64,000 nt of DNA, from the NCBI GenBank assembly GCA_965217585.1, contig OZ244561.1, positions 2,848,001 through 2,912,000 of the forward strand, given 5' to 3'. Position 1 is the stretch's first letter. The number at the start of each line of letters is the position of its first letter. Shown one piece after another: positions 3,873 through 24,691 of this stretch. Source of the stretch: Candidatus Latescibacterota bacterium. GTDB taxonomy: Bacteria > Latescibacterota > UBA2968 > UBA8231. The position numbers and the translations under genes are program-made. The notes below the pieces were generated by a model, which was not told the DNA's origin, did not search any database, and saw nothing but the letters and a program-made list of their open reading frames with translations.

Positions 3873-6266
3873 ATGCTGGGCAACTACCTGACGACGGCGC
3901 TGCGGCTTCTGTGGCGGGAGCGCGGCTACGCGGCGATCAACATCTTCGGCTTGGCCATCGGCTTTGCCCTGTGTCTGCTGATCGTCCAGTTCTCCGCCTA
4001 TCAACTCGTGATTGGCGACTTCCACGAGAAAAAAGACCGGGTTTACCGCGTGCTGGGACCAAATTTTTGGACACCTGGGTACACGGGAGCACTGCCAATA
4101 CCTCTGGGGCCGGCCCTTGAGGAGCAACTGCCCGAAGTCGAAGAGGCGGTCCGCTTCACTGCGAGTTGGCCGAGTCTGCTCCGGGTCGGGTCCAAGGACG
4201 GGATCTCCGAGAAAGTGCTGACCGCGGAAGCAGGCGTTTTCGACGTGTTTAGCTTGCCGCTCCTGCGCGGCGACCCCAAGACGGCCCTGACGCGCCCCTA
4301 CACCATGGTGCTGACCGAGCCGCTCGCCCGTCGGCTGTTCGGCGAGAGCGATCCCATCGGACAGGTCGTCCGCTACGAAGAAAAATTTGATTGCGAGGTC
4401 ACCGGCATAGTCGGCCAGCCACCCACCAGCTCGTTGCTCCAGTTCTCGGCACTGCTCTCTTTTGCAACAGAGTACAAGGAGACCCCGGGAATGATGGCGT
4501 CTGGTTGGAACGCTTCAGCCTTCACGACCTTCGTGCAGCTAACGCCCGGTGCCGACCCGGCTGCGGTAGCCGGGCGCATCCCCAGTATTGTCGAGGCGAA
4601 CAGGGGGGTATCAGACGCTGATAGGGCCGAGGCGATCACAGGATCGCGAGAGACTGCTTTTTCCTACGCACTGCAACCCTTGAAATCGATCTACTTCGAC
4701 ACCGAGGTGTCCAGCAACATTGGCCCGAGTGGCAATCCCCTCTACTTGACGCTGTGCGCCATCTTAGCAGCCGTGATTCTGACGATCGCCGGGGTCAACT
4801 ACGTGAACTTGGCGACGGCGCGGGCCGGGCGGCGGACTCACGAGATCGGCGTCCGCAAGACCCTCGGCGCACATCGCGGCCAGCTCATTGGCCAGCTCCT
4901 GAGCGAGTCGGTGCTGTTGAGCGCTGGGGCGACCGTGCTGGGCGTTGCCATGGCCGAGGGTGTGATTCTGCTCATACCCGTGATTACGGGATTCGATTTT
5001 GAATTGTCCTTTCTGCGCTGGACCCTCCCGGTCTGCGCCGGGGCTGTGGTGCTGGCGGTGGGGGTCGGGTTGGCCGCGGGTGCGTACCCGGCGTGGGTAG
5101 TGGCGCGCTTTCAGCCGGCGACTGCGGTGCGCGGGGGCCGCGTGGGCGGTGCGCGTCTGCGCCGAGGTTTAGTGGTGGCGCAGTTCACGGTCACCGCGGC
5201 GTTGATGAGCATGACGCTGCTGATATGGCACCAGCTCGATTACGTCCAAAACCTCCTCCGCGAGGACTCGGCCTTGGGGTTCGAGCCAGAACAGGTAGTG
5301 GTGATCAGGAATAGTGCTTTGAGCATAGATCGCGCCCGAACCTTCAAGACGGAGTTGCTTCAAGACAGCCGCATTGCTGCGGTGAGTCTCGCTGCGACAG
5401 TGCCTGGTGAAGGTTCGAGTACGAAGTACGGCGTCAAGCCAGAGGGCGTGGAAGATCAAGTAATGATGAGAACTTATGGCGTGGATGGCGACTTCGTCGA
5501 AATCATGGGCTTGCGCATGGCCGAGGGACGCGATTTTACCGACGAAGCGACCGGCGCAGTTGTCATCAACGAGACCGCGATGCGGATGTTGGAGTGGACC
5601 GAACCGCTGGGCAAGAGGATTGCCGTCGGCGGTCAGGACCTGCGCGTCGTGGGCGTGATTGCGGACTTCCACTTCGACGGTCCGCACCGGAAGGTAGAGC
5701 CCCTGATCATGGTGCCGGTCGCCCACTGGTCGAGCCTCATTATCGTGCGGGTGCAACCCGGTCATCTCGACGCGGCCCTCAAAATGATTGACGCCAAGTG
5801 GGAGGCGGTCGCACCCTACCGCCCCATCCAGCGTCAGCCTCTCGAAGAGGTCTTCGCCGGGCTTTATTTTCAAGAGTTGTTGATAGGACGCGCCCTCACG
5901 GTCTTCCTCGTTTTATCTCTCGTCGTCGCCTCAATAGGACTTTTCGGCATGGCGGCACACGCCGCTCAAGAGCGCACGAAGGAGATCGGCATCCGCAAGG
6001 TGTTCGGCGCTTCCCCCGGCGGCCTCACTGCCATGCTGCTGCGCGACTTTGCCAAGCCCGTTGCCATCGCCTTCCTCCTCAGCGTGCCCATCGCCTATTG
6101 GTTGGCTAACCAATGGCTGCAAGACTTTGCCTATCACGTGGAAGTCGGCGTGGGCCTGTTCTTGGTGTCGGGAGCCCTGTCCTTCGCCATCGCTGGACTG
6201 ACGGTGGGCCATCAGGCGATGCGAGCGGCCCTAACCAATCCGATAGACACGCTGCACACTGAATAA
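3873..6266 (+). CDS. MacB/FtsX-family double-length ABC permease P2 (subfamily A)
   Basis: 797 aa, two periplasmic-domain + TM halves, HEIGVRKTLGA and KEIGIRKVFGA coupling motifs, C-terminal NPIDTLHTE; RBS AAAGGAA. Confidence 0.95.
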   Translation: MLGNYLTTALRLLWRERGYAAINIFGLAIGFALCLLIVQFSAYQLVIGDFHEKKDRVYRVLGPNFWTPGYTGALPIPLGPALEEQLPEVEEAVRFTASWPSLLRVGSKDGISEKVLTAEAGVFDVFSLPLLRGDPKTALTRPYTMVLTEPLARRLFGESDPIGQVVRYEEKFDCEVTGIVGQPPTSSLLQFSALLSFATEYKETPGMMASGWNASAFTTFVQLTPGADPAAVAGRIPSIVEANRGVSDADRAEAITGSRETAFSYALQPLKSIYFDTEVSSNIGPSGNPLYLTLCAILAAVILTIAGVNYVNLATARAGRRTHEIGVRKTLGAHRGQLIGQLLSESVLLSAGATVLGVAMAEGVILLIPVITGFDFELSFLRWTLPVCAGAVVLAVGVGLAAGAYPAWVVARFQPATAVRGGRVGGARLRRGLVVAQFTVTAALMSMTLLIWHQLDYVQNLLREDSALGFEPEQVVVIRNSALSIDRARTFKTELLQDSRIAAVSLAATVPGEGSSTKYGVKPEGVEDQVMMRTYGVDGDFVEIMGLRMAEGRDFTDEATGAVVINETAMRMLEWTEPLGKRIAVGGQDLRVVGVIADFHFDGPHRKVEPLIMVPVAHWSSLIIVRVQPGHLDAALKMIDAKWEAVAPYRPIQRQPLEEVFAGLYFQELLIGRALTVFLVLSLVVASIGLFGMAAHAAQERTKEIGIRKVFGASPGGLTAMLLRDFAKPVAIAFLLSVPIAYWLANQWLQDFAYHVEVGVGLFLVSGALSFAIAGLTVGHQAMRAALTNPIDTLHTE

Positions 6267-6281
6267 CCTAGTCATTTATCC

Positions 6282-6309
6282 GTAGGGGTGGTTCGCGAAC
6301 CGCCCCCAC
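6282..6309. repeat. GTAG-type REP-like palindrome
   Basis: GTAGGGGTGGTTCGCGAACCGCCCCCAC, an imperfect hairpin starting with GTAG in the P2-P3 spacer. Confidence 0.65.
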
Positions 6310-6327
6310 GACGCGAAAGGAACTATC

Positions 6328-8715
6328 ATGCTGGGCAACTATCTGACGACGGCGCTGCGCCTGCTGTGGCGGGAGCGCGGGTACGCGGCGATCAACATCT
6401 TTGGACTGGCCATTGGCTTGGCTCTATGCCTGCTGATCGTCCAGTTCTCCACCTATCAGCTCTCCGTTGGCGACTTCCACGAGAAAAAAGACCGGGTTTT
6501 TCGCGTACTGGGACCAAACTTTCGGATTGCCGAGGACGGAGAAATGGTGAGTGCCGGGCACGGAACAAGTGTGCCAATAGAGTTGGGACCGACCCTCAAA
6601 GAGCAACTGCCCGAAGTCGAGGAGGCGGTTCGCTTCAGTTCGAGGAGGCCGATTCCGCTCCGAGTCGGGGACAAGGACGCGATCTCTGAAGAAGTGCTGA
6701 CGGCGGAAGCCGGCGTTTTCGACGTGTTCAGCTTTCCGCTCCTGCGCGGCGATCCCAAAACGGCTCTGACCCGCCCCTACACCATGGTGCTGACCGAGCC
6801 GTTGGCCCGTCGGCTTTTCGGCGATAGCGATCCCATCGGACAGGTCGTCCGCTACGGCGAAAGATTCGATTGCGAGGTCACTGGTATCGTCGGCCAGCCG
6901 CCCGCTAGCTCGTTGCTCCAGTTCTCGGCGCTGCTCTCCTTTGAGACGGAGTACGAGGAGAGTCGGGCCATGATGGAAACGAGAACCGCTAGGGCCTTCA
7001 TCACCTTCGTGGAGCTAACACCCGGTGCCGACCCGGCTGCGCTAGCCGTGCGCATCCCCAGCTTCGCCGAGAAGATCACGGGGATGCCCGAACCGCCCGG
7101 TTCTTCCTACATGCTACAGCCCCTCGAAGCGATCCGCTTTGATGCGGAAGTGCCCAACAACCTCGGCCCGACTAGCAACCCCATGTACTTGGCGGTGTGC
7201 GCCATCTTAGCCGTGGTAATTCTGACGATCGCCGGCGTCAACTACGTGAACTTGGCGACGGCACGAGCCGGGCAGCGGACGCACGAGATCGGCGTGCGCA
7301 AGACCCTCGGTGCTCATCGCGGCCAGCTCATTGGCCAACTCCTGAGCGAGTCGGTGCTGTTGAGCACTGCGGCGACAGTCTTGGGCACGGTCTTAACAAA
7401 GGGTTTGGTTCTGCTGGTACCCGTGATTACGGGATTCGATATCGAGATACCTTTTCTGGACTGGACGCTCTCGGCCTGCGCCGGGGCTGCAGCGCTGGCG
7501 GTGGGGGTCGGATTGGTCGCAGGCGCGTACCCGGCTTGGGTCGTGGCGCGCTTTCAGCCGACGGTCGCCGTGAGCAGGGGCCGCGTGGGTGGTGCGCGTC
7601 TGCGCCAAGGCTTGGTGGTGGCGCAGTTCACGATTACCGCGGCGTTGATGACGATGACGCTGCTGATATGGCACCAAATCGATTTCATCCAAAACCTCGC
7701 CTTTGAGAACTCCCCCCTAGAGTTTGAGCCGGAACAGGTGGTCGTCGTCCACAACCACGGAATGACCGGGGATGAAGCCCAAGTTTTTAAGACAGAGCTG
7801 CTTCAGGACAGCCGCATCGCCGCGGTGAGTCTCGCTGAGACCGTACCTGGTGCGTTTTCGGAGGTGTCGTACAGTGCCGAGCCAGAGGGAGCCGGGGAAG
7901 TAATGATGAGAGTGTATGGCGTGGATGGCGACTTCGTCGAAATCATGGGCTTGCGCATGGCCCAAGGGCGCACCCTGACCGACGATCCGGCCGATGACCG
8001 AGCTATCGTCATCAACGAGGCCGCTGTGCAGATGCTGGGGTGGGAAGAACCGCTGGGCAAGATGATCTACAACTTCAAAGGCCAAAACTGGCGCGTCGTG
8101 GGCGTGATTGAGGACTTCCACTTCGACGGCCCGCACCGGAAGATACAGCCGCTGCTCATGGGACCGGTCACTGGCTGGGTGGGCGTCATTATCGTGCGGG
8201 TACAGCCCGGGCACCTCGACGAAGCCCTCAAGGTAATCGACGACAAGTGGGCCGCCGTTAAGCCCTACCGCCCCATCAAACGCCAACCCCTCGAAGAGGT
8301 CTCCGCCGGGTTTTACGCACAGGAACTGTTGATAGGACGCGCCCTCACGGTCTTCCTCGTTTTATCGCTCGTCGTCGCCTCGGTAGGGCTTTTCGGCATG
8401 GCGGCACACGCCGCCCAAGAGCGCACCAAAGAGATCGGCATCCGCAAGGTGTTCGGCGCTTCTCCTGGCGGCCTCACCGCCATGCTGCTGCGCGATTTCG
8501 CCAAGCCCGTTGCCATCGCCTTCCTCCTCAGCGTACCGATCGCCTATTGGTTGGCTAACCAGTGGCTGCAAGACTTTGCCTATCACGTGGAAGTCGGCGT
8601 GGGTCTGTTCTTGGTGTCGGGCGCTTTGTCCTTCGCCATCGCCGGGCTGACAGTGGGGCACCAAGCGATGCGAGCGGCGCTGACCAATCCGATAGAAACG
8701 CTGCGCACCGAGTAG
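6328..8715 (+). CDS. ABC permease P3 (subfamily A)
   Basis: 795 aa, same architecture and framework as P2. Confidence 0.95.
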   Translation: MLGNYLTTALRLLWRERGYAAINIFGLAIGLALCLLIVQFSTYQLSVGDFHEKKDRVFRVLGPNFRIAEDGEMVSAGHGTSVPIELGPTLKEQLPEVEEAVRFSSRRPIPLRVGDKDAISEEVLTAEAGVFDVFSFPLLRGDPKTALTRPYTMVLTEPLARRLFGDSDPIGQVVRYGERFDCEVTGIVGQPPASSLLQFSALLSFETEYEESRAMMETRTARAFITFVELTPGADPAALAVRIPSFAEKITGMPEPPGSSYMLQPLEAIRFDAEVPNNLGPTSNPMYLAVCAILAVVILTIAGVNYVNLATARAGQRTHEIGVRKTLGAHRGQLIGQLLSESVLLSTAATVLGTVLTKGLVLLVPVITGFDIEIPFLDWTLSACAGAAALAVGVGLVAGAYPAWVVARFQPTVAVSRGRVGGARLRQGLVVAQFTITAALMTMTLLIWHQIDFIQNLAFENSPLEFEPEQVVVVHNHGMTGDEAQVFKTELLQDSRIAAVSLAETVPGAFSEVSYSAEPEGAGEVMMRVYGVDGDFVEIMGLRMAQGRTLTDDPADDRAIVINEAAVQMLGWEEPLGKMIYNFKGQNWRVVGVIEDFHFDGPHRKIQPLLMGPVTGWVGVIIVRVQPGHLDEALKVIDDKWAAVKPYRPIKRQPLEEVSAGFYAQELLIGRALTVFLVLSLVVASVGLFGMAAHAAQERTKEIGIRKVFGASPGGLTAMLLRDFAKPVAIAFLLSVPIAYWLANQWLQDFAYHVEVGVGLFLVSGALSFAIAGLTVGHQAMRAALTNPIETLRTE

Positions 8716-8747
8716 CGCACACCCATTGCATGAGAGGAGACGCCATT

Positions 8748-10073
8748 ATGAACACTTTCATTTACCAAATGCAACGCGTCCTGATTGTGGTTGCAATGTC
8801 GGCTATGATGGGATATGGTGAGGATTCGAACTCCGAGGGAAGTGCCTCATCGCCCACAATTGAGAAGACGCTCGTCGCACATCCCGGCGAAACGCTGCAA
8901 GTCAACTCTAGGTATGCCTCGCAGACCATCGACTCCCAAGCGGGAAACCAAGTCAGAGTGGTCGTGACTCGCAGTGTCCTTGAGAAGTACGAGCACGACG
9001 CCGATCGCATTCTCCGGGAACACAAGGTCGAAATCTCGCGCCACGATCACGGTATCACCATTTACACCGATGTGGATGACTCCGTCTTGGAGCGATGGCA
9101 AGCCGATTATAAGACCGTTCCTCCGCTGCGCGTTCACGTAAAAGCACTGGTGCCAAAGCAGGGTTACGACGTAAATGCGACGACGACGTTTGGCAGTCAG
9201 GACATCCAGAACATCAATGGATCGGTCAATGCCCAAGCCCGCCAAGACGCAATTATCATTAACGCCCTCGGCGACGTTCAGGTACGCTCAATTTTCGGTG
9301 GCCTGACCATACGCGATGTCGCCGGTAGCGTCTTGCGCGCCGAGGCCCGTGGAAAGGTCGATATCAAGCACGTAAAAGGTTCCCACGTCAACGCTGCGTC
9401 GAGTTTTGGCTCTTTGGTACTGGATGACATTGCCGGTTTCGCCAATGTCAGTGCCCGTGGGGATGTGAACATCAGCAATGTAGGCGGCGACCTCGAAGTG
9501 TCGTCGAGCTTCGGCGGCGTGACCATACGCGATGTTGTCGGTAGAGTTTTGCGCGCCGAGGCCCGTGGAAAAGTTGATATCAAGCACGTAAAAGGTTCCC
9601 ACGTCAACGCTGCGTCGAGTTTTGGCTCTTTAGTACTGGATGACATTGCCGGTTTCGCCAATGTCAGTGCCCGTGGGGATGTGAACATCAGCAATGTAGG
9701 CGGCGACCTCGAAGTGTCGTCGAGCTTCGGCGGCGTGACCATACGCGATGTCGCTGGTAGTGTCTTGCACGCCAAGGCCCGCGAAAAGGTCGATATCAAG
9801 ACGGTGCGACGCGACATCTTAGACGCGCGTTCCAGCTTTGGGGGCCTTGTACTTGATGATGTTACTGGTGTCGCCTACGCACATGCGCGTCAAGCCATCA
9901 CAGTCAGCAATGTAGGCGGCGACCTCTCAGCATCCTCTAGCTTCGGCAGCGTGACAATTCATCATGTCGGTGGTTCCGTGCGCGCTGAGGCCCGGGGTGA
10001 TATTGAGCTGAAGGATGTAGCAAAAGAGGCGAGCATCCATTCGTCATTTGGCAAGGTCCGCCGGGTGGAGTAG
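8748..10073 (+). CDS. DUF4097-like (putative adhesin / beta-strand repeat) exported protein 1
   Basis: ATG at 8748 after GAGGAG; the tracked ORF start 8562 overlaps P3. Signal-like N-terminus, many SSFG/xIxNVGGDL beta-repeat units; paralogue of 14923-16149. Confidence 0.75.
   Translation: MNTFIYQMQRVLIVVAMSAMMGYGEDSNSEGSASSPTIEKTLVAHPGETLQVNSRYASQTIDSQAGNQVRVVVTRSVLEKYEHDADRILREHKVEISRHDHGITIYTDVDDSVLERWQADYKTVPPLRVHVKALVPKQGYDVNATTTFGSQDIQNINGSVNAQARQDAIIINALGDVQVRSIFGGLTIRDVAGSVLRAEARGKVDIKHVKGSHVNAASSFGSLVLDDIAGFANVSARGDVNISNVGGDLEVSSSFGGVTIRDVVGRVLRAEARGKVDIKHVKGSHVNAASSFGSLVLDDIAGFANVSARGDVNISNVGGDLEVSSSFGGVTIRDVAGSVLHAKAREKVDIKTVRRDILDARSSFGGLVLDDVTGVAYAHARQAITVSNVGGDLSASSSFGSVTIHHVGGSVRAEARGDIELKDVAKEASIHSSFGKVRRVE
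9304..9800 (+). repeat. In-frame 216-bp tandem repeat (about 2.3 copies)
   Basis: TGACCATACGCGATGT starts at 9304, 9520 and 9736; 72-aa unit TIRDV...SSSFGGV. Confidence 0.92.
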
Positions 10074-14922: not shown

Positions 14923-16149
14923 ATGAACACTTTCATTTACCAAGTGCAACGCGTCCTGATTATGGTCGCGATGTCGGCTATGATGGGATATGGTGAGGAT
15001 CTGAACCCCGAGGGAGATGCCTCATCGCCTACAATTGAGAAGACGCTCGTCGCCCATCCCGGCGAAACGCTGCAAGTCAACTCTAGGTATGCCTCGCAGA
15101 CAATCGACTCCCAAGCGGGGAACCAAGTCAGCGTGGTAGTAACCCGCAGTGTCCTTGAGCAATACAAGCACGACGCCAATCGCATCCTCAATGAACACAA
15201 AGTCGAAATCTCGAGCCCCGACCAAGGTATCACCATTTACACCCACGTGGATGACTCCGTCTTGGAGCGATGGCAATCCGATTATGACACTGCTTCTCCG
15301 CTGCGCGTTCACGTGAAAGTGCTGGTGCCAAAGCAGGGTTACGATGTAGTTGCGAGGACGATGTTTGGCAGTCAGGACATCCAGAACATCGATGGTTCAG
15401 TCCATGCAAGTGCCCGTAAGGACATAACTATCAATAATGTAGACGGCGACCTCGACATATCGTCGAGCTATGGTGGCCTGACTATACGCAATGTCACCGG
15501 TGATGGCGTCTTGCGGGCCTCGGCGCGCAAAACGGTCGATATCAGACACGTAAAAGGCCCCCACGTCAACGCTCGGTCGAGTTATGGCTCTCTGACGCTG
15601 GATGACATTGACGGTTCAGTCCATACAAGTGCCCGTAAGGACATCAATATCAGCAATGTAGACGGCGATCTTAACGTATCGTCGAGCTATGGTGGCCTGA
15701 CCATAAGCAACGTCGCTGGTAATGACAATTCAGTCCATGCAAGTGCCCGTAAGGACATCAATATCAGCAATATAGACGGCGACCTCGACATGTCGTCGAG
15801 CTATGGTGGCCTGACTATACGCAATGTCGCTGGTAGCGTTTTGCGCGCCGAGGCTCGCAAAACGGTCGATATCAAGGCGGTGCGACGCGACATCTTCGAC
15901 GCGCGTTCCAGCTATGGTGGCCTTGTACTTGATGATGTTAGTGGTGCCGCCCACGCACATGCGCGCAAAGCTATCACAGTCAGCAATGTAGGCGGCGACC
16001 TCTCGGCTTACTCTAGCTTCGGCAGCGTGACAATTCATCATGTTGGTGGTTCCGTGCGCGCTGAAGCCCGGGGTGATATTGAGCTGAAGGATGTAGCAAA
16101 AGAGGCGAGCATCAGGTCGTCATTTGGCAAGGTCCGCCGGGTGCAGTAG
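14923..16149 (+). CDS. DUF4097-like beta-strand repeat exported protein 2
   Basis: 408 aa, GAGGAG RBS; N- and C-termini close to 8748-10073; SSSYGGLTI repeat units. Confidence 0.75.
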   Translation: MNTFIYQVQRVLIMVAMSAMMGYGEDLNPEGDASSPTIEKTLVAHPGETLQVNSRYASQTIDSQAGNQVSVVVTRSVLEQYKHDANRILNEHKVEISSPDQGITIYTHVDDSVLERWQSDYDTASPLRVHVKVLVPKQGYDVVARTMFGSQDIQNIDGSVHASARKDITINNVDGDLDISSSYGGLTIRNVTGDGVLRASARKTVDIRHVKGPHVNARSSYGSLTLDDIDGSVHTSARKDINISNVDGDLNVSSSYGGLTISNVAGNDNSVHASARKDINISNIDGDLDMSSSYGGLTIRNVAGSVLRAEARKTVDIKAVRRDIFDARSSYGGLVLDDVSGAAHAHARKAITVSNVGGDLSAYSSFGSVTIHHVGGSVRAEARGDIELKDVAKEASIRSSFGKVRRVQ

Positions 16150-16233: not shown

Positions 16234-18558
16234 ATGCTGGGTAACTATCTGACGACGACGCTGCGTCTTCTGTGGCGGGAGCGCGGCTACGCGGCGATCA
16301 ACATCTTCGGTCTGGCGGTCGGCTTTTGCCTGTGTCTGCTGACCGTCCAGCTCGCCGCCTATCAGCTCTCGGTTGGCGACTTCCACGAGAAAAAAGACCG
16401 GGTTTTCCGCGTGTTGGTATCAGACACGCAGAATACCGAGTACACAGCGGGGGTACGAATACCACTGGGGCCGACCCTCAAGGAGCAATTGCCCGAAGTC
16501 GAGGAGGCGGTACGCTTTGGCTGGACTTTTCTTAGTCCGCTTCGGGTCGGGGACAAGGACGGAATATATGAAGAGGTTAGTCAGGTGGAGACTGGCGTTT
16601 TCGACATGTTTAGCTTGCCGCTTCTGCACGGTGACCCCAAGACGGCTTTGTCGCGCCCCTACACCATAGTGCTGACTGAGCCATTGGCCCGTCGGCTCTT
16701 CGGCGAGAGCGATCCCATCGGACAGGTCGTCCACGCCGGGACGTTCGATTACGAGGTTACCGGCATCGTCGGCCAGCCGCCCGCCAACTCGCTGCTCCAG
16801 TTCTCGGCGCTGACCTCCTTCGCCACGAATTACATAATAAATCAGAGCTTGATGGAGTCTGGTTGGGACGTTTCAAGCTTTACGACCTTCGTGCAGCTAA
16901 CGCCTGATGCTGACGCGGCTGCGGTAGTCGCGCACATTTCCGACACCGTCAAGGAGGCCACGGGGTTGACCGATTCCTACGCGCTACAGCCGCTGAAATC
17001 GATCTACTTCGACACGGAGGTGCTCAGCACCATTGGCCCGAGGGGCAACCCCGTGTACCTCGCTCTGTGTGCCATCTTAGCGGTGATAATCCTGACGATC
17101 GCCGGGGTCAACTACGTGAATTTGGCGACGGCGCGGGCGGGGCGACGGATTCACGAGATCGGCGTGCGCAAGGCCCTCGGCGCTCATCGCGGCCAGCTTA
17201 TTGGCCAACTTCTGAGCGAGTCGGTGCTGTTGAGTACTGCGGCGACGGTGCTGGGCGTTGCCATGGCAGAGATTATGATTCTGCTCCTACCCGCGATTGT
17301 GGGATTCGATTTTGAATGGTCATCCCTGCGCTGGACGATCTCGACTTACGCCGGGGCTGTGGTGCTGGCGGTGGGGGTTGGACTGGTCGCAGGTGCGTAC
17401 CCGGCGTGGGTCGTGGCGCGCTTTCAGCCGACGGCTGCGGTGCGCGAAGGCCGCGTAGGCGGTGTACTCCTGCGTCGGGGTTTGGTGGTGACGCAGTTCA
17501 CGGCCACTACGGCGTTGCTGACGATGACGCTGCTGATATGGCACCAGATTGATTACATCCAAGACCGCTTCCGCGAGAACTCCATCTTGGGAGCGGAGCC
17601 GGAACAGGTTGTCGTCGTCCAGAACCGCGGTTTGACCGTGGATCAGGCTCAAGCCTTCAAGACAGAGCTGCTTCAGGACAGCCACATCGCCGCGGTGAGT
17701 CTCTCTATGACAGTACCGGGTGAGGGTTCGGGAGCGTCGAGTTTTACAGCGGAAGGGCAAAGGATAAACAAGTATCAAGTAGATGGCGACTTCGTCGAAA
17801 TCATGGGCTTGCGCATGATCCAGGGACGCGCCCTGACCGACGAACCGGCCGACGCCTATGCGGTCGTCATCAACGAGGCCACCGCGAGGATAATGGGGCC
17901 AGGCAAGACGATCCCCCCTTGGGGGGTAGAAAAGCGCGTCGTGGGCGTGATCGAGGACTTTCACTTCTACGGTCCGCGCCATGAGATAGAGCCACTGGTC
18001 ATGGAACAGGTCGCTGGATGGGTCGGCGTTATTATCGTGCGGGTGCGCCCCGGCCATCTCGACGCAGCTCTCAAAGTGATTGACGACAAGTGGGCCGCCG
18101 TCGCGCCCTACAACCTCATCCAGCGCAACTCCCTCGAAGAGGTCACCACCAAACTCTACTCCGAGGACCTGATGATGGGCCGCGCACTCGCGGTCTTTCT
18201 CTTTTTAGCCATCGCCGTCGCCTCGGTAGGACTCTTCGGCATGGCCGCGCACGCCGCCCATGAGCGCACCAAGGAAATCGGCATCCGCAAGGTGTTCGGC
18301 GCTTCTCCCGGCGGTCTCACCGCTATGATGCTGCGGGACTTTGCCAAACCCGTTGCCATCGCCTTCCTGCTCAGCGTGCCCATCGCCTACGGCTTGGCCA
18401 CCCACTGGCTACAGGAGTTTGCCTATCGCGTGGAAATCGGCGTGGGCCTGTTCTTGGTGTCGGGAGCCTTGTCCTTCGTCATTGCCGGGCTGACGGTGGG
18501 CCACCAAGCGATGCGAGCGGCCCTGACCAATCCGATAGAAACGCTGCGCACTGAATGA
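16234..18558 (+). CDS. ABC permease P6 (subfamily A)
   Basis: 774 aa, same framework as P2. Confidence 0.95.
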   Translation: MLGNYLTTTLRLLWRERGYAAINIFGLAVGFCLCLLTVQLAAYQLSVGDFHEKKDRVFRVLVSDTQNTEYTAGVRIPLGPTLKEQLPEVEEAVRFGWTFLSPLRVGDKDGIYEEVSQVETGVFDMFSLPLLHGDPKTALSRPYTIVLTEPLARRLFGESDPIGQVVHAGTFDYEVTGIVGQPPANSLLQFSALTSFATNYIINQSLMESGWDVSSFTTFVQLTPDADAAAVVAHISDTVKEATGLTDSYALQPLKSIYFDTEVLSTIGPRGNPVYLALCAILAVIILTIAGVNYVNLATARAGRRIHEIGVRKALGAHRGQLIGQLLSESVLLSTAATVLGVAMAEIMILLLPAIVGFDFEWSSLRWTISTYAGAVVLAVGVGLVAGAYPAWVVARFQPTAAVREGRVGGVLLRRGLVVTQFTATTALLTMTLLIWHQIDYIQDRFRENSILGAEPEQVVVVQNRGLTVDQAQAFKTELLQDSHIAAVSLSMTVPGEGSGASSFTAEGQRINKYQVDGDFVEIMGLRMIQGRALTDEPADAYAVVINEATARIMGPGKTIPPWGVEKRVVGVIEDFHFYGPRHEIEPLVMEQVAGWVGVIIVRVRPGHLDAALKVIDDKWAAVAPYNLIQRNSLEEVTTKLYSEDLMMGRALAVFLFLAIAVASVGLFGMAAHAAHERTKEIGIRKVFGASPGGLTAMMLRDFAKPVAIAFLLSVPIAYGLATHWLQEFAYRVEIGVGLFLVSGALSFVIAGLTVGHQAMRAALTNPIETLRTE

Positions 18559-18605: not shown

Positions 18606-18634
18606 ATGCTCACTACGAAACGAAAGGAACGATC

Positions 18635-20968
18635 ATGCTGGGTAATTACCTGACGACGGCGCTGCGGCTTCTGTGGCGGGAGCGCGGCTATGCGGCGATC
18701 AACATTTTCGGTCTGGCGGTCGGCTTTTGCCTATGCTTGCTGGTCGTCCAACTCGCCGCCTATCAGCTTTCTGTTGGCGACTTTCACGAGAAAAAAGACC
18801 GGGTATTCCGCGTGTTGGTATCAGACACGCAGAATACCGAGTACACGGCGGGGGTACGAATACCACTGGGGCCAACCCTCAAGGAGCAATTGCCCGAAGT
18901 CGAGGAGGCGGTCCGCTTTAGCCCGGGTTGGCCGGTTCTGCTTCGGGTCGGAGACGAGGACGGAAGATATGAAAAGGTTAGTGAGGCGGAAGCCGGCGTT
19001 TTCGACATGTTTAGCTTGCCGCTCCTACGCGGCGACCCGAAGACGGCCTTGGCGCGCCCTTACACCATGGTGCTGACCGAGCCGTTGGCCCGTCGACTCT
19101 TCGGCGAGAGCGATCCCATCGGACAGGTCGTCCACGTCGAGAAGCTCGATTACGAGGTTACCGGCATCGTCGGCCAGTTGCCCGCCAACTCGCTGCTCCA
19201 GTTCTCGGCGCTGCGTTCGCTTTCCACCGCCACAAACCCAATGTTGGCGTCTGGTTGGAACGCTTCAGGCTTCAGGACCTTCGTGCAGCTAACGCCCGGT
19301 GCCGACGCGGCTGCGGTAGCCGCGCGCATTTCCGGCATCGTCAAGGAGGTTAGGGGGTTGCCCGAAGCGCCCGGTTCCTACGCGCTACAGCCGCTGAAAT
19401 CGATCTACTTCGACACCGAAGTGCCCAACAGCGTCGGCCCAAAAGGCAATCCCGTGTACCTCGCTGTGTGCGCCATTTTAGCGGTGGTGATCCTGACAAT
19501 CGCCGGGGTCAACTATGTGAACTTGGCGACGGCACGGGCCGGGCGACGGATTCGCGAAATCGGCGTGCGCAAGGCCCTCGGTGCTCATCGCGGCCAGCTC
19601 ATGCGCCAACTTTTGAGCGAGTCACTACTGTTGAGTACTGCGGCGACGGTGCTAGGCGTTGCCATGGCAGAGGTTATGGTTCTGCTCCTACCTGCGATGG
19701 TGGGATTCGATTTTGAATGGTCATCCCTGCGCTGGACGATCTCGACCTACGCTGGGGCTGCGGTGCTGGCGATAGGGGTCGGACTGGCTGCGGGCGCGTA
19801 CCCGGCTTGGGTCGTGGCGCGTTTTCAGCCGACGGCTGCCGTGCGCGGGGGCCGCGTGGGCGGTGTACTCCTGCGTCGGGGTTTGGTGGTGACGCAGTTC
19901 ACGGCCACTACGGCGTTGCTGACGATGACACTGCTGATGTGGCACCAACTCGATTACATCCAAGACCTTCTCCGCGAAGACTCCATCTTGGGGTCGAAGC
20001 CGGAACAGGTTGTCGTCGTCGAGAACCGCGGTCTGACCATGGATCAGGCTCGAGCCTTCAAGACGGAGTTGCTTCAGGACAGTCGCATCGCCGCAGTGAG
20101 TCTCTCTACGACAGTACGTGGTCAGGGTTTCGGAATGACTTCGAGAGGGGAAGATCAAATAGAGATAAATGTGTATCAAGCAGATAGCGACTTCGTCGAA
20201 ATCATGGGCTTGCGCATGGCCCAAGGACGCGCCCTGACCGACGAACCGGCCGACGCCCGAGCGGTCGTCATCAACGAGACCGCCGCGAGGATAATGGAAT
20301 GGGCGGAGCCGCTGGGCGAGACGATCGCCGTCCAAGGAGGAAAGCGCGTCGTCGGCGTGATTGAGGACTTCCACTTCCACGGCCCGCGCCATGAGATAGA
20401 GCCACTGATTATAGAACAGGTCGCTGGATGGGCGGGCGTCATTCTCGTGCGAGTGCGCCCCGGCCATCTCGACGCAGCCCTCAAAGTGATCGACGACAAG
20501 TGGGCCGCGGTCGCGCCCTACCGCCCCATTCAGCGCAATTCCCTCGAAGAGGTCACCACCAAACTCTACTCCGAGGACCTGATGGTGGGCCGTGCACTCA
20601 CTCTCTTTCTCTTCTTAGCCATCGCCGTCGCCTCGGTAGGACTCTTCGGCATGGCCGCACACGCCGCCCATGAGCGCACCAAGGAGATCGGCATCCGCAA
20701 GGTGTTCGGTGCTTCTCCCGGCGGTCTCACCGCTATGCTGATGCGGGACTTCGCCAAACCCGTTTCCATTGCCTTCCTGCTCAGCGTGCCGATCGCCTAT
20801 GGGCTGGCCACCCACTGGCTACAGGAGTTTGTCTATCGCGTGGAAATCGGCGCGGGCCTGTTCTTGGTGTCGGGCGCTCTGTCCTTCGTCATCGCCGGGC
20901 TGACGGTGGGGCACCAAGCGATGCGAGCGGCCCTGACCAATCCGATAGAAACGCTGCGCACTGAGTAG
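18635..20968 (+). CDS. ABC permease P7 (subfamily A)
   Basis: 777 aa, same framework as P2. Confidence 0.95.
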   Translation: MLGNYLTTALRLLWRERGYAAINIFGLAVGFCLCLLVVQLAAYQLSVGDFHEKKDRVFRVLVSDTQNTEYTAGVRIPLGPTLKEQLPEVEEAVRFSPGWPVLLRVGDEDGRYEKVSEAEAGVFDMFSLPLLRGDPKTALARPYTMVLTEPLARRLFGESDPIGQVVHVEKLDYEVTGIVGQLPANSLLQFSALRSLSTATNPMLASGWNASGFRTFVQLTPGADAAAVAARISGIVKEVRGLPEAPGSYALQPLKSIYFDTEVPNSVGPKGNPVYLAVCAILAVVILTIAGVNYVNLATARAGRRIREIGVRKALGAHRGQLMRQLLSESLLLSTAATVLGVAMAEVMVLLLPAMVGFDFEWSSLRWTISTYAGAAVLAIGVGLAAGAYPAWVVARFQPTAAVRGGRVGGVLLRRGLVVTQFTATTALLTMTLLMWHQLDYIQDLLREDSILGSKPEQVVVVENRGLTMDQARAFKTELLQDSRIAAVSLSTTVRGQGFGMTSRGEDQIEINVYQADSDFVEIMGLRMAQGRALTDEPADARAVVINETAARIMEWAEPLGETIAVQGGKRVVGVIEDFHFHGPRHEIEPLIIEQVAGWAGVILVRVRPGHLDAALKVIDDKWAAVAPYRPIQRNSLEEVTTKLYSEDLMVGRALTLFLFLAIAVASVGLFGMAAHAAHERTKEIGIRKVFGASPGGLTAMLMRDFAKPVSIAFLLSVPIAYGLATHWLQEFVYRVEIGAGLFLVSGALSFVIAGLTVGHQAMRAALTNPIETLRTE

Positions 20969-21035
20969 CAACACCGGCTTCGTCGGGAGACTTCCAATGC
21001 CGCCCGCCGTGGGCGTTTGCTGAAAGGAAATACCA

Positions 21036-22289
21036 ATGAATAGATCATTCGCAGTAGCGGCCGTGTTCTTGCTGGCGTCGCATCCATTATGGGCCGAGGA
21101 GAAGCGGGGCCTTTGGGACAGCAAGAGATATTCGGGATGGGAGCAAAAGTGGGGTGTGGGCGATTCGCATTTATACCAATACCAAGACGACGTAAATCCC
21201 TTGGTGCGGTACAACCGGGTGGAGGGTTTGCTGGTGGGTGCTCGGGTGCCGCGCTCCTACCGCGACTGCGAGGGCATGGCCCCCTATGGGGAATTGGCCT
21301 ATAGCTTTGGCAACCGCGCATGGCACTACCAAGCCGGCACCCAAGTATTCACGTTCCAAGCCTGCCACCGCGATAACCCTCACTTCGCCAGCTTGGGGGC
21401 CGAGTTGCACGATCTGACCGCCACGCAGGACAACTATCTAGTGCCCGAGGAGGTGAACTCGGTGTATGCGGCGCTGTTCCGGCGCGACCTGCGCGATTAC
21501 TACCGCCGTGTCGGCTGGAGCGTCTATGCGGGGCAGAACTTAGCCGGCGTAGTGCAGCTTACCGGGCGCTTGGCTCACGACGAATTCTTCAACTTGGAGA
21601 ACGCAGTCCATTGGATCTTGCTGGGCAACCGCTTGGCCCGCGATCAGTTCCGCGCCAATCCGGCGATAGACGAGGGCACGGCGGTCCGGTTGCAAGCCGA
21701 GGTACAGCTCGACACCCGGTCCAACGGAGACCAGCGGCAGGGGTGGCTGGTCAATGCCTTGGCCGAACGCGCCGGCGACTTGGGCGGCGAATTCGCCTTC
21801 CGGCGCTATCTAATAGATCTCCGCCGCTACCAGCTCATCGCCCGTGGCACCCAGATAGACTTGCGGCTCCGTCTTGGACGGGGAGATGGGGGTGTGGGGC
21901 GGTGTATAGGAGACGGCGATACATGCCCGTCTCAAGGGGGTTTGCCGCGGCAGTACTTGTTCGATCTGGGGGGCTATTCGACGCTGCGGGGGTATTCGTA
22001 CAAGGCATTTACCGGAGACCGGATGATTCTCCTCAATGCCGAATACTGGATTGCCCCGGACCACTCCGACGGATGGCGCGCTGGCGTCCTCTTTGATGTG
22101 GGTTCCGCTTGGTTTGCCCGGCCAGAGGACGCCGCAAAGATCGCGGACGGGGAATCGCTCGACACTGACTTAAAGGCCAGCCTCGGTTTTGGGATAGGCG
22201 ACGACGAGTGCCAATTCGAGTTGGCCAAGCCCTTTGGGCAACGCGACGCCGATTGGCACTATGCGATCCGGTTCAGCGAGACGTTCTAG
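21036..22289 (+). CDS. Omp85/BamA-TamA-like outer-membrane beta-barrel without obvious POTRA domains
   Basis: Signal peptide (MNRSFAVAAVFLLASHPLWA), amphipathic strands, LGGYSTLRGY (VRGF/Y-like loop 6 motif), FDVG, terminal Phe. Confidence 0.75.
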   Translation: MNRSFAVAAVFLLASHPLWAEEKRGLWDSKRYSGWEQKWGVGDSHLYQYQDDVNPLVRYNRVEGLLVGARVPRSYRDCEGMAPYGELAYSFGNRAWHYQAGTQVFTFQACHRDNPHFASLGAELHDLTATQDNYLVPEEVNSVYAALFRRDLRDYYRRVGWSVYAGQNLAGVVQLTGRLAHDEFFNLENAVHWILLGNRLARDQFRANPAIDEGTAVRLQAEVQLDTRSNGDQRQGWLVNALAERAGDLGGEFAFRRYLIDLRRYQLIARGTQIDLRLRLGRGDGGVGRCIGDGDTCPSQGGLPRQYLFDLGGYSTLRGYSYKAFTGDRMILLNAEYWIAPDHSDGWRAGVLFDVGSAWFARPEDAAKIADGESLDTDLKASLGFGIGDDECQFELAKPFGQRDADWHYAIRFSETF

Positions 22290-22321
22290 GGACCCTCACT
22301 ACGAGACGAGAGGAATTATCC

Positions 22322-24691
22322 ATGCTGAGCAATTACCTGACGACGGCGCTGCGGCTTTTGTGGCGAGAGCGTGGCTACGCGGCGATCAACATCTTCGGTT
22401 TGGCCGTCGGCTTTTGCCTGTGCCTGTTGATCGTCCAATTCGCCGCCTATCAGCTCTCGGTTGGCGACTTTCACGAGAAAAAGGACCGGGTTTACCGCGT
22501 GCTCGAGAAAGAAGATCGGATCGATCACCTGCTAGCCAGTTGGGAATGGTCCGAGTACTCGGCAAGTATGCCGATACCGCTGGGGCCGACCCTTGAGGAG
22601 CAATTGCCCGAAGTCGAGGAAGCGGTCCGCTTCAGACCGGGGGGGGAGCCGAGGCTGCTTCGGGTCGGGGACAAGGACGGAGTATCTGAAAAGGTTATTT
22701 GGACGGAAGCCAGCGTTTTCGACGTGTTTAGCTTCCAGCTTCTACGCGGCGACCCCAAGACGGCTCTAACGCGCCCCTACACCATGGTGCTGACCGAGCC
22801 GTTGGCCCGTCGGCTCTTTGGCGAGAGCGATCCCATCGGACAGGTCGTTCGGGTCAATGAGGAGTTCGATTGCGAGGTTACCGGCATCGTCGGCCAGCCG
22901 CCCTCCAGTTCATTGATTCAGTTCTCGGCGCTGCTCTCCTTTGCCACAGAGTACACGGTGAATCGGACAAAGGTGTCGTCTAGCTGGATCTTCGTGCAAC
23001 TAACGCCCGGTGCCGACCCTGCTGCGGTAGCTGCACGCATCCCTAGCATCTTCGAGGAGGCTTGGTTGTCCGGTTCCTACGCGCTGCAACCCCTGAAATC
23101 GATCTACTTCGACACGGAGTTGGGCAACTTCCTTGGCCCAAGGGGCAACCCCCTCTATTTGACGCTAGGCACCATTTTAGCGGCAGTGGTCTTGATGATC
23201 GCCGGCGTCAACTACGTGAACTTGGCGACGGCACGGGCGGGGCGACGGATTCACGAGATCGGCGTGCGCAAGGCCCTCGGCGCTCATCGCGGCCAGCTCA
23301 TGCGCCAATTTCTGAGCGAGTCGGTGCTGTTGAGCGCTGCGGCGACCGTGCTGGGCGCGGTCTTAACAGAGGTCTTGAGTCTGCTCCTGCCCGTCATTGC
23401 GGGATCCGGTTTCGAGTTGCCTCAGTTGCGCTGGACGAGTTCGACCTACGCCGGGGCGGCGGCGCTGGCGGTAGGGGTTGGACTGGTCGCGGGTGCCTAT
23501 CCGGCTTGGGTCGTGGCGCGCTTTCAGCCGACGGTCGCGGTGCGCGGAGGGCGCGTAGGCGGTGGGCGCTTGCGTCAGGGTTTGGTAGTGGCGCAGTTCA
23601 CGGTTACGGCGGCGCTGCTGACGGTGACGCTGCTGATGTGGCACCAAGTTGATTACATCCAAAATCTCCTCCGCAAGGACTCTGTCTTGGGGTTGGAGTC
23701 GGAACAGGTTGTCGTCGTCCATAATAACAACAGCGTCCTGACCGTAGATCAGGCTCGAGCCTTCAAGACAGAACTTCTTCAGGACAGCCGCATCGCCGCG
23801 GTAAGCCTTTCTACGTCAGTACCTGGTGAGGATTCGAGATTAGGGAATTCGTTCGAGGGAGAGGGAGTGGAAGGGGAAACAGAGATGAACGTGTTTGAAG
23901 CGGATGGCGACTTCGTCGAAATCCTAGGATTGCGCATGGTCCAAGGACGCGCCCTGACCGACGAACCGGCCGACGACCGAGCGGTTGTCATCAACGAGAC
24001 CACCGCGAAGCAGATGGGATGGGCGGAGCCGCTGGGCAAGACGCTCTCCAACTACTGGGGAGACTTGCGCGTCGTGGGCGTGGTTGAAGACTTCCACTTC
24101 GACGGTCCGCGCTATGAGGTAGAGCCACTGGTCATAGCACAGGTCGATGACTGGGTGGAAGTCATTCTCGTGCAGGTGCAACCCGGCCATCTCGACGCAG
24201 CCCTCAAAGTGATTGACGACAAGTGGGCTGCCGTCTCGCCCCATCACCCCATCCAGCGCAACTCCCTCCAAGAGGTCGTCGCCCATCTCTATTCCGAGGA
24301 TCTGCTGATGGGCCGTGCACTCACGCTCTTTCTCTTTTTAGCCATCGCCGTCGCCTCGGTGGGACTCTTCGGCATGGCGGCGTACGCCGCCAATGAGCGC
24401 ACGAAAGAGATCGGCATCCGCAAGGTGTTCGGCGCTTCTCCCGGCGGCCTCACCGCCATGCTGCTACGCGACTTCGCCAAGCCCGTTGCCATCGCCTTCC
24501 TCCTCAGCGTGCCCATCGCCTACGGCTTGGCCACCCACTGGCTACAGGAGTTTGTCTATCGCGTGGAAATCGGCGTGGGCCTGTTCCTGCTGTCGGGAGC
24601 CTTGTCCTTCGCCATTGCCGGGTTGACGGTGGGCCACCAAGCGATGCGAGCGGCCCTGACCAATCCAATAGAAACGCTGCGCACTGAATAA
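22322..24691 (+). CDS. ABC permease P8 (subfamily A)
   Basis: Start reassigned to ATG 22322 (MLSNYLTTALRLL) after GAGGAA; same framework as P2. Confidence 0.95.
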   Translation: MLSNYLTTALRLLWRERGYAAINIFGLAVGFCLCLLIVQFAAYQLSVGDFHEKKDRVYRVLEKEDRIDHLLASWEWSEYSASMPIPLGPTLEEQLPEVEEAVRFRPGGEPRLLRVGDKDGVSEKVIWTEASVFDVFSFQLLRGDPKTALTRPYTMVLTEPLARRLFGESDPIGQVVRVNEEFDCEVTGIVGQPPSSSLIQFSALLSFATEYTVNRTKVSSSWIFVQLTPGADPAAVAARIPSIFEEAWLSGSYALQPLKSIYFDTELGNFLGPRGNPLYLTLGTILAAVVLMIAGVNYVNLATARAGRRIHEIGVRKALGAHRGQLMRQFLSESVLLSAAATVLGAVLTEVLSLLLPVIAGSGFELPQLRWTSSTYAGAAALAVGVGLVAGAYPAWVVARFQPTVAVRGGRVGGGRLRQGLVVAQFTVTAALLTVTLLMWHQVDYIQNLLRKDSVLGLESEQVVVVHNNNSVLTVDQARAFKTELLQDSRIAAVSLSTSVPGEDSRLGNSFEGEGVEGETEMNVFEADGDFVEILGLRMVQGRALTDEPADDRAVVINETTAKQMGWAEPLGKTLSNYWGDLRVVGVVEDFHFDGPRYEVEPLVIAQVDDWVEVILVQVQPGHLDAALKVIDDKWAAVSPHHPIQRNSLQEVVAHLYSEDLLMGRALTLFLFLAIAVASVGLFGMAAYAANERTKEIGIRKVFGASPGGLTAMLLRDFAKPVAIAFLLSVPIAYGLATHWLQEFVYRVEIGVGLFLLSGALSFAIAGLTVGHQAMRAALTNPIETLRTE

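Follow-up and report, generated by a model that had tools for sequence, protein, structure and literature searches.

Type VII ABC transporters work by mechanotransmission and offer substrates no path through the membrane. Among those described, MacAB-TolC combines a fold with Porter and Sabre periplasmic subdomains with an HlyD-type adaptor, and its substrates are thought to be captured from the periplasm; MacB itself forms homodimers of 4-TM units to which the ATPase is fused (PMC5985334). In E. coli YbbAP (9ge6), the excerpted account presents an internally pseudo-symmetric single chain with two Porter-plus-Sabre periplasmic domains, a separate ATPase that is bound via two coupling helices, and 10 TM helices, of which TM5-6 link the halves; this system works with TesA and has no adaptor (PMC12646458). 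BceAB-type peptide-antibiotic transporters of the Firmicutes, in the available part of their description, pair a conserved TM part (10 TM helices) with one poorly conserved Porter-plus-Sabre extracellular domain, which reportedly sets the substrate spectrum and whose binding site is predicted to lie beneath the connecting strands, where Porter and Sabre meet; they are coupled to a BceRS kinase (PMC12484072). The DarBCD darobactin exporter (NF038008/NF038010/NF038007) unites a fused double permease with an HlyD-type adaptor and a separate ATPase. Finally, ADOP permeases are called 'orphan' since no ATPase gene lies alongside them. They comprise about 800 aa with two MacB_PCD plus FtsX halves per chain (TIGR03434) and form large tandem paralogue clusters adjoining other transporter genes, one of which, in the extract seen of its report, spans 42 kb and holds ten paralogues in Psychroflexus torquis (PMC3914696). 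The family of duplicated MacB/FtsX-type permeases is very large, with 17,984 representatives of sequence clusters matched at E<=1e-30. Our literature searches found almost no functional work on them and none on positive selection in the MacB periplasmic domain.

Here, we describe an operon-like array of 17 permeases in a window of 64,000 nucleotides, the whole stretch of DNA that was analysed, from a Latescibacterota-labelled lineage. Seven of them, subfamily A, lie in tandem within positions 3873-24691. Like ADOP, the first copy (A1) aligns end to end with the family model, but it reaches only 264.3 bits (257-259 for two other permeases of the array) against a curated cut-off of 622.3; unlike ADOP, the array is no orphan, as two ATPase genes and an adaptor are present in an arrangement that is kept in 15 other genomes, and its lineage differs. 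Dar names are the best or near-best NCBIfam matches for permease, adaptor and ATPase, yet all scores stay far under the equivalog cut-offs: 70.9 bits versus 700 for the permease (DarB, NF038008), 153 versus 450 for the adaptor, whose top match is DarC-like, and 269.7 versus 375 for ATPase 1 with the DarD-like model. DarBCD moreover has one permease, whereas this array has seven of subfamily A. The A permeases differ from MacB in having both halves on one chain and an unfused ATPase, and from YbbP in that the A1 model has eight TM helices, with an identity of only 14%. The predicted BceAB binding site falls in the same region as the fast-evolving candidate sites of A1 described below, although a tandem expansion this large is not described in the accessible text on the BceAB type (PMC12484072).

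Layout of the array and its conservation in the genus

The A slot and its flanking genes all lie on the same strand:

1733..3085, + strand: HlyD-type periplasmic adaptor (membrane fusion protein; Pfam HlyD_3/HlyD_D23)
3113..3847, + strand: ABC ATPase 1, MacB/LolD/DarD-like (PF00005, E=5.5e-35)
3873..6266, + strand: permease A1, 797 aa (two MacB_PCD and two FtsX domains by Pfam; AlphaFold2 model)
6328..8715, + strand: permease A2, 795 aa (ORF, paralogue alignment)
8748..10073, + strand: interleaved repeat protein 1 (441 aa; 64% identity with repeat protein 2)
10158..12509, + strand: permease A3, 783 aa (ORF, paralogue alignment)
12529..14889, + strand: permease A4, 786 aa (ORF, paralogue alignment)
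14923..16149, + strand: interleaved repeat protein 2, 408 aa, relatives of which lie within the slot elsewhere in the genus
16234..18558, + strand: permease A5, 774 aa (ORF, paralogue alignment)
18635..20968, + strand: permease A6, 777 aa (ORF, paralogue alignment)
21036..22289, + strand: interleaved Omp85-superfamily outer-membrane protein, 417 aa (PF01103, E=3.7e-9)
22322..24691, + strand: permease A7, 789 aa from ATG 22322 (ORF open from GTG 22208)
24712..25386, + strand: ABC ATPase 2, which closes the A slot (PF00005)

The start of A7 is most likely ATG 22322 (MLSNYL...) rather than GTG 22208, because a GGAA-type motif precedes it as in the other six copies. Repeat protein 2, a paralogue of repeat protein 1, matched no family in Pfam and NCBIfam searches. 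ATPase 1 ends 25 nt before A1, and gaps of 19-84 nt separate the genes at 14 consecutive same-strand junctions from the first permease through ATPase 2, which is followed by 233 nt before the next permease. A sequence scan found neither terminator-like sites nor sigma-70 promoters in the intergenic gaps of the array, and matches to the sigma-54 consensus were overall no more numerous than in shuffled sequence, one of them being a promoter candidate by its position alone. Two RNA libraries contain short pieces of 95-99+% likeness (nine contigs in X16, eight in X20) that fall on parts of A1, A2, A3, A5, A6, the gene for repeat protein 2 and the Omp85-like gene; library X17 contributed just two pieces of ~31 nt each, and X18 yielded no contig on the array. 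Because such libraries can contain DNA, these pieces are at most a weak hint of transcription, and the stretches they do not cover are uninformative.

Subfamily A is held by 16 of the 31 genomes of the genus, with one to seven permeases each, and the order of adaptor, ATPase 1, one to seven A copies and ATPase 2 recurs in the 15 other genomes. ATPase 2 sits directly 3′ of the last A copy in all 15 (90-99% identical), the adaptor precedes the slot in 13 (86-95% identical; the two misses are contig ends) and ATPase 1 is likewise found in 13 (88-98% identical). Copies of the Omp85-like gene, 91% identical, lie inside the slot in three of these genomes (G010, G022 and G044). Orthologues of A1, A2, A3, A4, A6 and A7 occur in other species.

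Permease fold and the placing of constant and variable segments

The seven permeases are 774-797 aa long and 71-85% identical, and each consists of two units of a MacB periplasmic domain plus an FtsX 4-TM bundle. In A1, Pfam recognises both the MacB-type Porter-plus-Sabre domain (PF12704, E=4.4e-41) and the FtsX bundle (PF02687, E=1.9e-24) in two stretches each, and a profile search matched the periplasmic domain of 3is6 (E=1.9e-30). The AlphaFold2 model of A1 (pLDDT 91, pTM 0.88) has eight long TM helices at residues 17-46, 289-320, 335-372, 385-411, 427-463, 666-700, 715-749 and 760-786, giving the order TM1, periplasmic domain 1, TM2-4, TM5, periplasmic domain 2 and TM6-8. By Foldseek, its nearest fold is YbbAP 9ge6 (E=3e-20), followed by MacB and LolCDE. 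FtsX bundles, Porter-plus-Sabre domains and MacB-type ATPase genes, the last linked by adjacency only, thus all agree with the type VII (MacB/FtsX) superfamily.

The preliminary description had pictured a constant framework with variable periplasmic loops, and this picture holds. All conserved blocks that it quoted are present (EQLPEVEEAVRF, LTEPLARRLFG, DFVEI[M/L]GLRM and KEIGIRKVFGASPGGLTAM), as are the variable strings: there are six distinct loops after EKKDRVxRV among the seven copies, A5 and A6 sharing one, and seven after AVRF. The variable loops are indel-rich, their lengths differing among copies by up to 11 residues. Eight variable patches were delimited in A1, and all of their 141 residues fall within the two periplasmic domains (Pfam MacB_PCD and AlphaFold2 limits), their structural placing being given by the secondary-structure order and pLDDT of the model only:

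4053..4097, + strand: patch L1, residues 61-75, length-variable Porter beta1-to-alpha1 loop of domain 1; omega 0.79
4155..4178, + strand: patch L2, residues 95-102, Porter-to-Sabre junction of domain 1; omega 1.40, not significant; candidate sites 97-101
4461..4526, + strand: patch L3, residues 197-218, Sabre-to-Porter junction of domain 1; omega significantly under 1 (0.62)
4575..4664, + strand: patch L4, residues 235-264, Porter alpha2/beta4 insertion of domain 1; omega 0.73
5304..5330, + strand: patch L5, residues 478-486, Porter beta1'-to-alpha1' loop of domain 2; omega 0.50; candidate site 485
5394..5477, + strand: residues 508-535, end of Porter beta2' and, in domain 2, the first hairpin of Sabre (patch L6); omega of the patch 1.29, not significant
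5577..5642, + strand: patch L7, residues 569-590, within Sabre of domain 2; omega significantly under 1 (0.54)
5703..5738, + strand: patch L8, residues 611-622, Sabre-to-Porter junction of domain 2; omega 1.06
5976..6035, + strand: invariant block TKEIGIRKVFGASPGGLTAM, residues 702-721, a short helix that joins TM6 to TM7 on the cytoplasmic side; pN 0.000 versus pS 0.261 over 21 pairs

Patch L4 has the lowest pLDDT of domain 1. The patches take pseudo-symmetric positions in the two domains, namely at the beta1-alpha1 loop and at both junctions of Porter with Sabre. At the opposite extreme, the TKEIGIRKVFGASPGGLTAM block forms a helix at 702-710 in the A1 model and may be read as a coupling helix for the ATPase, by analogy with what the available text reports for YbbP (PMC12646458).

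Over 20-codon windows and all 21 pairs of copies, the proportion of non-synonymous differences varies sharply, from 0.000 to 0.477 (0.00-0.10 in conserved blocks), while the synonymous proportion stays at 0.22-0.50. Since synonymous divergence does not dip in the constant blocks, these are explained by purifying selection and not by gene conversion. It is accordingly highly improbable that conversion among the tandem copies keeps the framework identical while the loops escape it, even though such concerted evolution would fit the strong conflict among segment trees (in the AU test, each of five partitions rejects the trees of the others at p<=6e-4) and mosaics such as the C-terminus of A4, which resembles A1/A2 whereas that of its G044 orthologue does not. 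With a pS of 0.22-0.34, the invariant blocks do not fall below other stretches, exact nucleotide runs shared by two copies reach at most 71 nt, 150-nt windows of at least 96% identity occur in one pair only, and no recent conversion tracts were detected among the seven copies. In trees of the periplasmic domains, moreover, copies group by orthologue group and not by genome.

Selection on patches, framework and single sites

Rates were estimated from a codon set of 34 sequences, from which a contig-truncated copy (G006:C119, 716 aa), a 285-aa fragment (G020:C575), a broken copy in two pieces with two TAG codons (G013) and eight loci of other genomes at 62-68% identity (L044-L050, L052) had been left out. 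Across the eight patches, omega ranges from 0.50 to 1.40 and is nowhere significantly above 1: the two patches exceeding 1.2 have p=0.17 and p=0.11, and four of the eight (L3, 0.62; L5, 0.50; L7, 0.54; L4, 0.73) lie significantly or nearly significantly below 1. The preliminary description, which saw diversifying selection in the loops, had itself named a dN/dS at or below 1, together with variable residues scattered over the outer surface, as evidence to the contrary, and for the loops as units the first of these two is the outcome.

Among the window's own paralogues, dN/dS is 0.90 in patches and 0.28 in the framework, the former being biased upward because the patch columns were picked as variable among these same seven genes. 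Within nine orthologue groups the values are 0.57 and 0.17 (NG86). A branch-class maximum-likelihood fit gave patches an omega of 1.00 on duplication and deep branches versus 0.69 within orthologues (LRT 7.47, p=0.006), with 0.24 versus 0.18 for the framework. Purifying selection is widespread, as beta is below alpha at p<0.05 in 347 of 843 codon columns. Across 116 distant homologues, variability is 3.12 bits in the patches, 2.01 elsewhere in the periplasmic domains and 1.63 in TM and cytoplasmic parts, so that the same positions are the most variable in the family at large.

Taken together, patch omegas that never significantly exceed 1, a deep-branch value of exactly 1.00 and family-wide variability at the same positions are what would be seen if the patches simply drifted and gathered indels as unconstrained surface on redundant copies. 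We hold this reading of pure relaxed constraint to be doubtful, though by no means far-fetched. It is at odds with the patch omegas within orthologue groups, which are significantly under that of the deep branches, and with the long paralogue-specific loops that are nearly unchanged between species: the loops after EKKDRVxRV are almost the same across species for A2, A3, A5/A6 and A7, patch L1 is kept within orthologue groups, and loops in general are near-identical there. Such conservation within lineages would follow if every copy had come to serve a particular range of substrates or partners.

Pure relaxed constraint would also require an artefactual origin, be it recombination, multi-nucleotide changes, dS variation or residual misalignment, for the one class of codons that appears to exceed neutrality. 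An M1a/M2a-type test detected a small site class with omega ~2.3 that comprises ~9% of the codons in the N-half of domain 2 (LRT 46.2, 9.4% of sites; 35.0 with gap-free columns) and is weaker in that of domain 1 (LRT 30.3; 12.1 with gap-free columns); the same test found no such class in the periplasmic C-halves and TM regions. The test used our own approximate codon-model code (MG94xHKY, F3x4, fixed partition trees, grid/EM fit, constant dS). Recombination is known to inflate positive-selection tests of this type, and null simulations reached a maximum LRT of 4.58 in 18 replicates without recombination and of 13.5 in 30 mosaic-tree replicates with heavy recombination. The gap-free signal of domain 1 hence lies inside the mosaic-null range, which, like the strong phylogenetic conflict, suits an artefact, while that of domain 2 is far over both nulls. 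The sites of this class are placed around the Porter-to-Sabre junction hairpin; in residues 508-535 of A1 the candidates are 508, 516, 518, 520 and 531 (posterior 0.94-1.00 for omega 2.3), and 516, 518 and 520 alternate on one beta-strand of the model, a further point against drift. Outside this stretch the candidate residues are 64, 65, 67, 68, 73, 97-101 and 485. A FEL-like test with site-specific dS is less favourable: beta exceeds alpha at p<0.05 in no more than 19 of the 843 columns, and not one of these passes Bonferroni correction (lowest p 0.0005), again as relaxed constraint would have it. The proposed diversifying selection is retained, tentatively, for a small class of sites in the periplasmic N-halves and not for the loops as such, and the codon-level check bears out the sharp variation of pN over an even pS without delivering any individual site after multiple-test correction.

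These rates also bear on the comparison with antibodies made in the preliminary description, which we abandon. Pervasive and ongoing diversification of all loops, lining a ligand cavity between the periplasmic domains, could account for the restriction of patches to these domains, for their pseudo-symmetry, for the existence of the omega ~2.3 class and for the fact that several candidate sites vary inside orthologue groups too. This arms race is nonetheless improbable, given that half of the patches tend to omega below 1, that its showpiece, L1, has an omega of 0.79 and is conserved among orthologues, and that the omega > 1 class makes up only ~5% of periplasmic codons. No generator of variation was seen either, as the 28 scanned ORFs, all above a size limit of 150-200 aa, include no reverse-transcriptase or hypermutation machinery. 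Programmed hypervariation as such was rejected on the lack of a reverse-transcriptase family among these ORFs, the length-variable loops and the near-identity of loops among orthologues.

Probable origin of subfamily A and a possible role of its permeases as exchangeable heads

The seven copies thus look like the product of ordinary divergence of duplicated transporter genes plus a few fast-evolving sites, rather than of antibody-like hypervariation. Subfamily A is probably a birth-and-death expansion of one permease within a tripartite ABC efflux operon of type VII that is itself conserved. All copies are fused double permeases with eight TM helices and two Porter-plus-Sabre domains, and they presumably dock on the same partners: on the cytoplasmic side two molecules of the ATPase encoded next to them, on the periplasmic side the HlyD-type adaptor. 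The blocks kept invariant by purifying selection, among them the TM bundles, the coupling helices and portions of Porter and Sabre, would then be the parts that are bound to stay compatible with these shared partners together with the mechanotransmission core. The variable patches, by comparison, would be the surface elements on which the fold places the weakest constraint; most of their divergence may have arisen between paralogues at a roughly neutral rate and been conserved later in each orthologue lineage. A small subset of sites appears still to outpace synonymous change, chiefly in domain 2 at the Sabre hairpin that directly follows Porter beta2, and their substitution pattern makes them the foremost candidates for a surface that determines specificity.

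A bolder and rather unlikely extension, which we put forward tentatively, is that of a cassette slot between the two ATPase genes, in which one to seven alternative permease 'heads' would serve one shared efflux motor made up of adaptor and ATPase, and different species would keep different types. The junction hairpin of each periplasmic domain, with residues alternating on one strand face, would then be a recurrently selected specificity determinant, driven by changing antimicrobial peptides or other periplasm-acting compounds. Were the loops mere unconstrained surface instead, the constant/variable pattern would be a default of the fold and not the sign of an arms race. In either case, the locus constitutes a natural experiment, with seven to seventeen heads beside one adaptor and two ATPases and with orthologues in 15 other genomes, and about a dozen residues around the Porter/Sabre junction offer themselves as testable candidate specificity determinants. 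If the cassette slot is real, the array would amount to a modular, evolvable efflux repertoire whose logic resembles that of ECF transporters, in which a shared module takes exchangeable S components.

Layout of the permease array

The window belongs to a 7.3-Mb single-contig genome, in which a same-strand gene array starts a short way upstream of the window, continues to 48027 and comprises the following features, in order.

Upstream end of the array, before the adaptor; array strand; first array permease
1733-3085; array strand; HlyD-type adaptor
3113-3847; array strand; ABC ATPase 1
3873-24691; array strand; seven subfamily A permeases (A1-A7), with two paralogous repeat proteins and an Omp85-like gene among them
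8748-10073; between A permeases; repeat-rich protein 1 (441 aa)
14923-16149; between A permeases; repeat-rich protein 2 (408 aa)
21036-22289; inside the permease slot; Omp85-superfamily outer-membrane protein gene
24712-25386; array strand; ABC ATPase 2
25620-48027; after ATPase 2; nine further double permeases (30-36% identity to A1)

Counting the one upstream of the adaptor, 17 permeases are consecutive in the array. From the first permease through ATPase 2, all 14 intergenic gaps measure 19-84 nt; between ATPase 2 and the following permease the gap is 233 nt. A terminator scan found no terminator-like site in any array intergenic gap. From the small gaps and the lack of such sites, we infer that the stretch is a single operon. 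The ORF following the last permease (48099-50456) encodes a pectate-lyase-like beta-helix protein rather than a permease.

The two repeat-rich proteins share 64% identity and have no family match in Pfam or NCBIfam. Relatives within the A slot of other genomes of the genus reach 88-90% identity in G022 and G020, 69% in G006 and ~24% in five others, while the Omp85-like gene has 91% identical copies in the same slot of G010, G022 and G044.

Several observations concern the surroundings. Divergent from the array, just upstream of the window, lie genes for a histidine kinase and a sigma-54-dependent response regulator (locus L054:11461-14197, minus strand). A -24/-12-like match (L054:15098-15112, plus strand) precedes the first permease start by ~40 nt, with one mismatch to the consensus and with match counts overall not above those of shuffles. 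Elsewhere in this locus, a TonB-dependent receptor seems divided between two ORFs, one for the Plug and another for the beta-barrel (L054:5843-7581); either a frameshift or an assembly error could explain this. Two RNA-labelled public libraries (X16 and X20), of a kind that may contain DNA, yield short contigs that match the array at 95-99+% (4576-5718, 7029-7182, 11653-11814, 15223-15915, 18219-18323, 20629-20733, 21206-21373). Finally, two 2-kb bins within 54001-60000 have a G+C content of 0.49 versus ~0.60 elsewhere and may be acquired DNA; a Fic/DOC-family gene (56996-58171) lies in this stretch.

Constant blocks and variable loops

Each A protein contains two MacB_PCD and two FtsX stretches. 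An AlphaFold2 model of A1 built on 124 sequences (pLDDT 91.1, pTM 0.88) predicts eight long TM helices and two alpha/beta periplasmic domains, with E. coli YbbAP as the best structural match, followed by MacB, LolCDE and BceAB. By sequence score, the proteins are relatives rather than members of ADOP (264 bits, below the curated cut-off of 622) and DarB (71 bits, below 700). Among the best 150 family representatives, about a quarter have an N-terminal extension of 70-100 residues ahead of the permease.

All invariant blocks and loops quoted in the preliminary description were found in the seven proteins, and the patches are periplasmic as it held, with 141 of 141 A1 patch residues inside the two periplasmic domains. 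Pairwise, the seven copies share 71-85% protein identity, with dS of 0.25-0.54 and whole-gene dN/dS of 0.29-0.47. In 20-codon windows, pN ranges from 0.000 at TKEIGIRKVFGASPGGLTAM to 0.477 at the loop after EKKDRVxRV while pS stays at 0.22-0.50 throughout, and thus the constant blocks are conserved only at the protein level. This pS along the genes, together with a longest exact nucleotide run of 71 nt between any two copies, also rules out gene conversion as the keeper of the framework. Across 116 distant homologues, the patches are the highest-entropy positions (3.12 bits, versus 2.01 for other periplasmic positions and 1.63 for TM/cytoplasmic ones); high variability at these sites therefore characterises the whole fold family rather than this array.

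Using definitions from a MacB review (PMC5985334) and the DSSP string of the A1 model, the patches were assigned to Porter and Sabre. Judged from secondary-structure order only, L1/L5, L2/L6 and L3/L8 appear to occupy equivalent places in both domains.

Table. Predicted location (from secondary-structure order in the A1 model) and ML omega of the eight variable patches (L1-L4, domain 1; L5-L8, domain 2).
Patch; predicted location; omega
L1; beta1-alpha1 loop of Porter; 0.79
L2; Porter-to-Sabre junction with first Sabre hairpin; 1.40 (not significantly above 1)
L3; Sabre-to-Porter junction; 0.62 (significantly below 1)
L4; insertion preceding last Porter strand; 0.73
L5; beta1-alpha1 loop of Porter; 0.50 (significantly below 1)
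L6; Porter-to-Sabre junction with first Sabre hairpin; 1.29 (not significantly above 1)
L7; Sabre segment; 0.54 (significantly below 1)
L8; Sabre-to-Porter junction; 1.06 (not significantly above 1)

Selection on the patches

All selection tests were run with custom scripts. Each of five alignment partitions rejects both the whole-gene tree and the trees of the remaining four (AU p<=6e-4), and partition-specific trees were therefore used. By the Nei-Gojobori method, dN/dS between the window's paralogues is 0.90 in patches and 0.28 in the framework; within nine orthologue groups, it is 0.57 (range 0.41-0.79) and 0.17. Branch-class ML likewise gave a patch omega of 1.00 on duplication and deep branches versus 0.69 on within-orthologue branches (p=0.006), with framework values of 0.24 and 0.18.

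The preliminary description had proposed diversifying selection on the loops, acting on a ligand-binding cavity. At the patch level this did not hold, as none of the eight omegas is significantly above 1. Site by site, a FEL-like grid test with site-specific dS found purifying selection in 347 of 843 columns (p<0.05) and beta>alpha in 19 (five at p<0.01), none of which survives multiple-test correction since the minimum p is 0.0005. M1a/M2a-like mixtures fitted with constant dS gave an omega>1 class: absent from TM/cytoplasmic columns and the C-terminal halves of both periplasmic domains, it appears in the N-terminal half of domain 2 (LRT 46.2, omega 2.3, 9.4% of sites; LRT 35.0 on gap-free columns) and of domain 1 (LRT 30.3; 12.1 on gap-free columns). 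Null simulations passed through the same pipeline gave LRTs of at most 4.58 without recombination (18 replicates) and 13.5 in mosaics of 105 codons built from three conflicting trees (30 replicates); therefore, the domain 2 signal is hard to dismiss and that of domain 1 is not secure.

In A1 numbering, candidate sites are 485, 508, 516, 518, 520, 531 and one column absent from A1 in domain 2, and 64, 65, 67, 68, 73 and 97-101 in domain 1. Residues 516, 518 and 520 alternate on one strand of the model. In BceAB-type relatives, according to one study (PMC12484072), the extracellular domain reportedly sets the substrate spectrum, and a site is predicted beneath the connecting strands, between Sabre and Porter. 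By analogy, the Porter/Sabre junction region is a plausible specificity or partner surface.

Orthology and evolution of the slot

Subfamily A is present in 16 of the genus's 31 genomes, this one counted (E<=1e-200). From the other 15, 27 additional full-length CDS were taken (six from G022, four from G044, two each from five genomes, one from each remaining genome); four incomplete or broken copies and eight more divergent loci were left out. A second copy in G013 (G013:C1:390895-393238, within locus L020) is broken in two, and the search reported two TAG codons in frame.

In the ML tree, A1, A2, A3, A4, A6 and A7 each group with orthologues of other species; the duplications are therefore older than those speciations. 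Loops that look hypervariable when the seven copies are compared hardly change inside orthologue groups, e.g. those of 20-24 residues in A2, A3 and A7. The order of adaptor, ATPase 1, one to seven A copies and ATPase 2 is seen in every genome whose contig extends far enough: ATPase 2 is at the slot in 15 of 15 genomes, and the adaptor and ATPase 1 in 13 of 15, the two misses being contig ends. Identity across genomes is 86-99% for the flanking genes, and the A copies match A1 at 68-91%. The cassette type retained differs between single-copy genomes, which fits birth-and-death evolution in one slot.

The constant/variable pattern is real, and as expected for a recently expanded transporter family. 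Shared partners and mechanics would keep the permease core. The surface loops diverged at a roughly neutral rate after duplication and then settled; recurrent positive selection may act on a few localised sites. The 'antibody-like' label overstates the case. Tandem clusters of such permeases have already been published, one being a set of ten ADOP paralogues from Psychroflexus torquis (PMC3914696). The new elements are the clean slot of variable copy number bracketed by two conserved ATPase genes, the paralogue-specific loops conserved at the orthologue level, and the junction-hairpin candidate sites.
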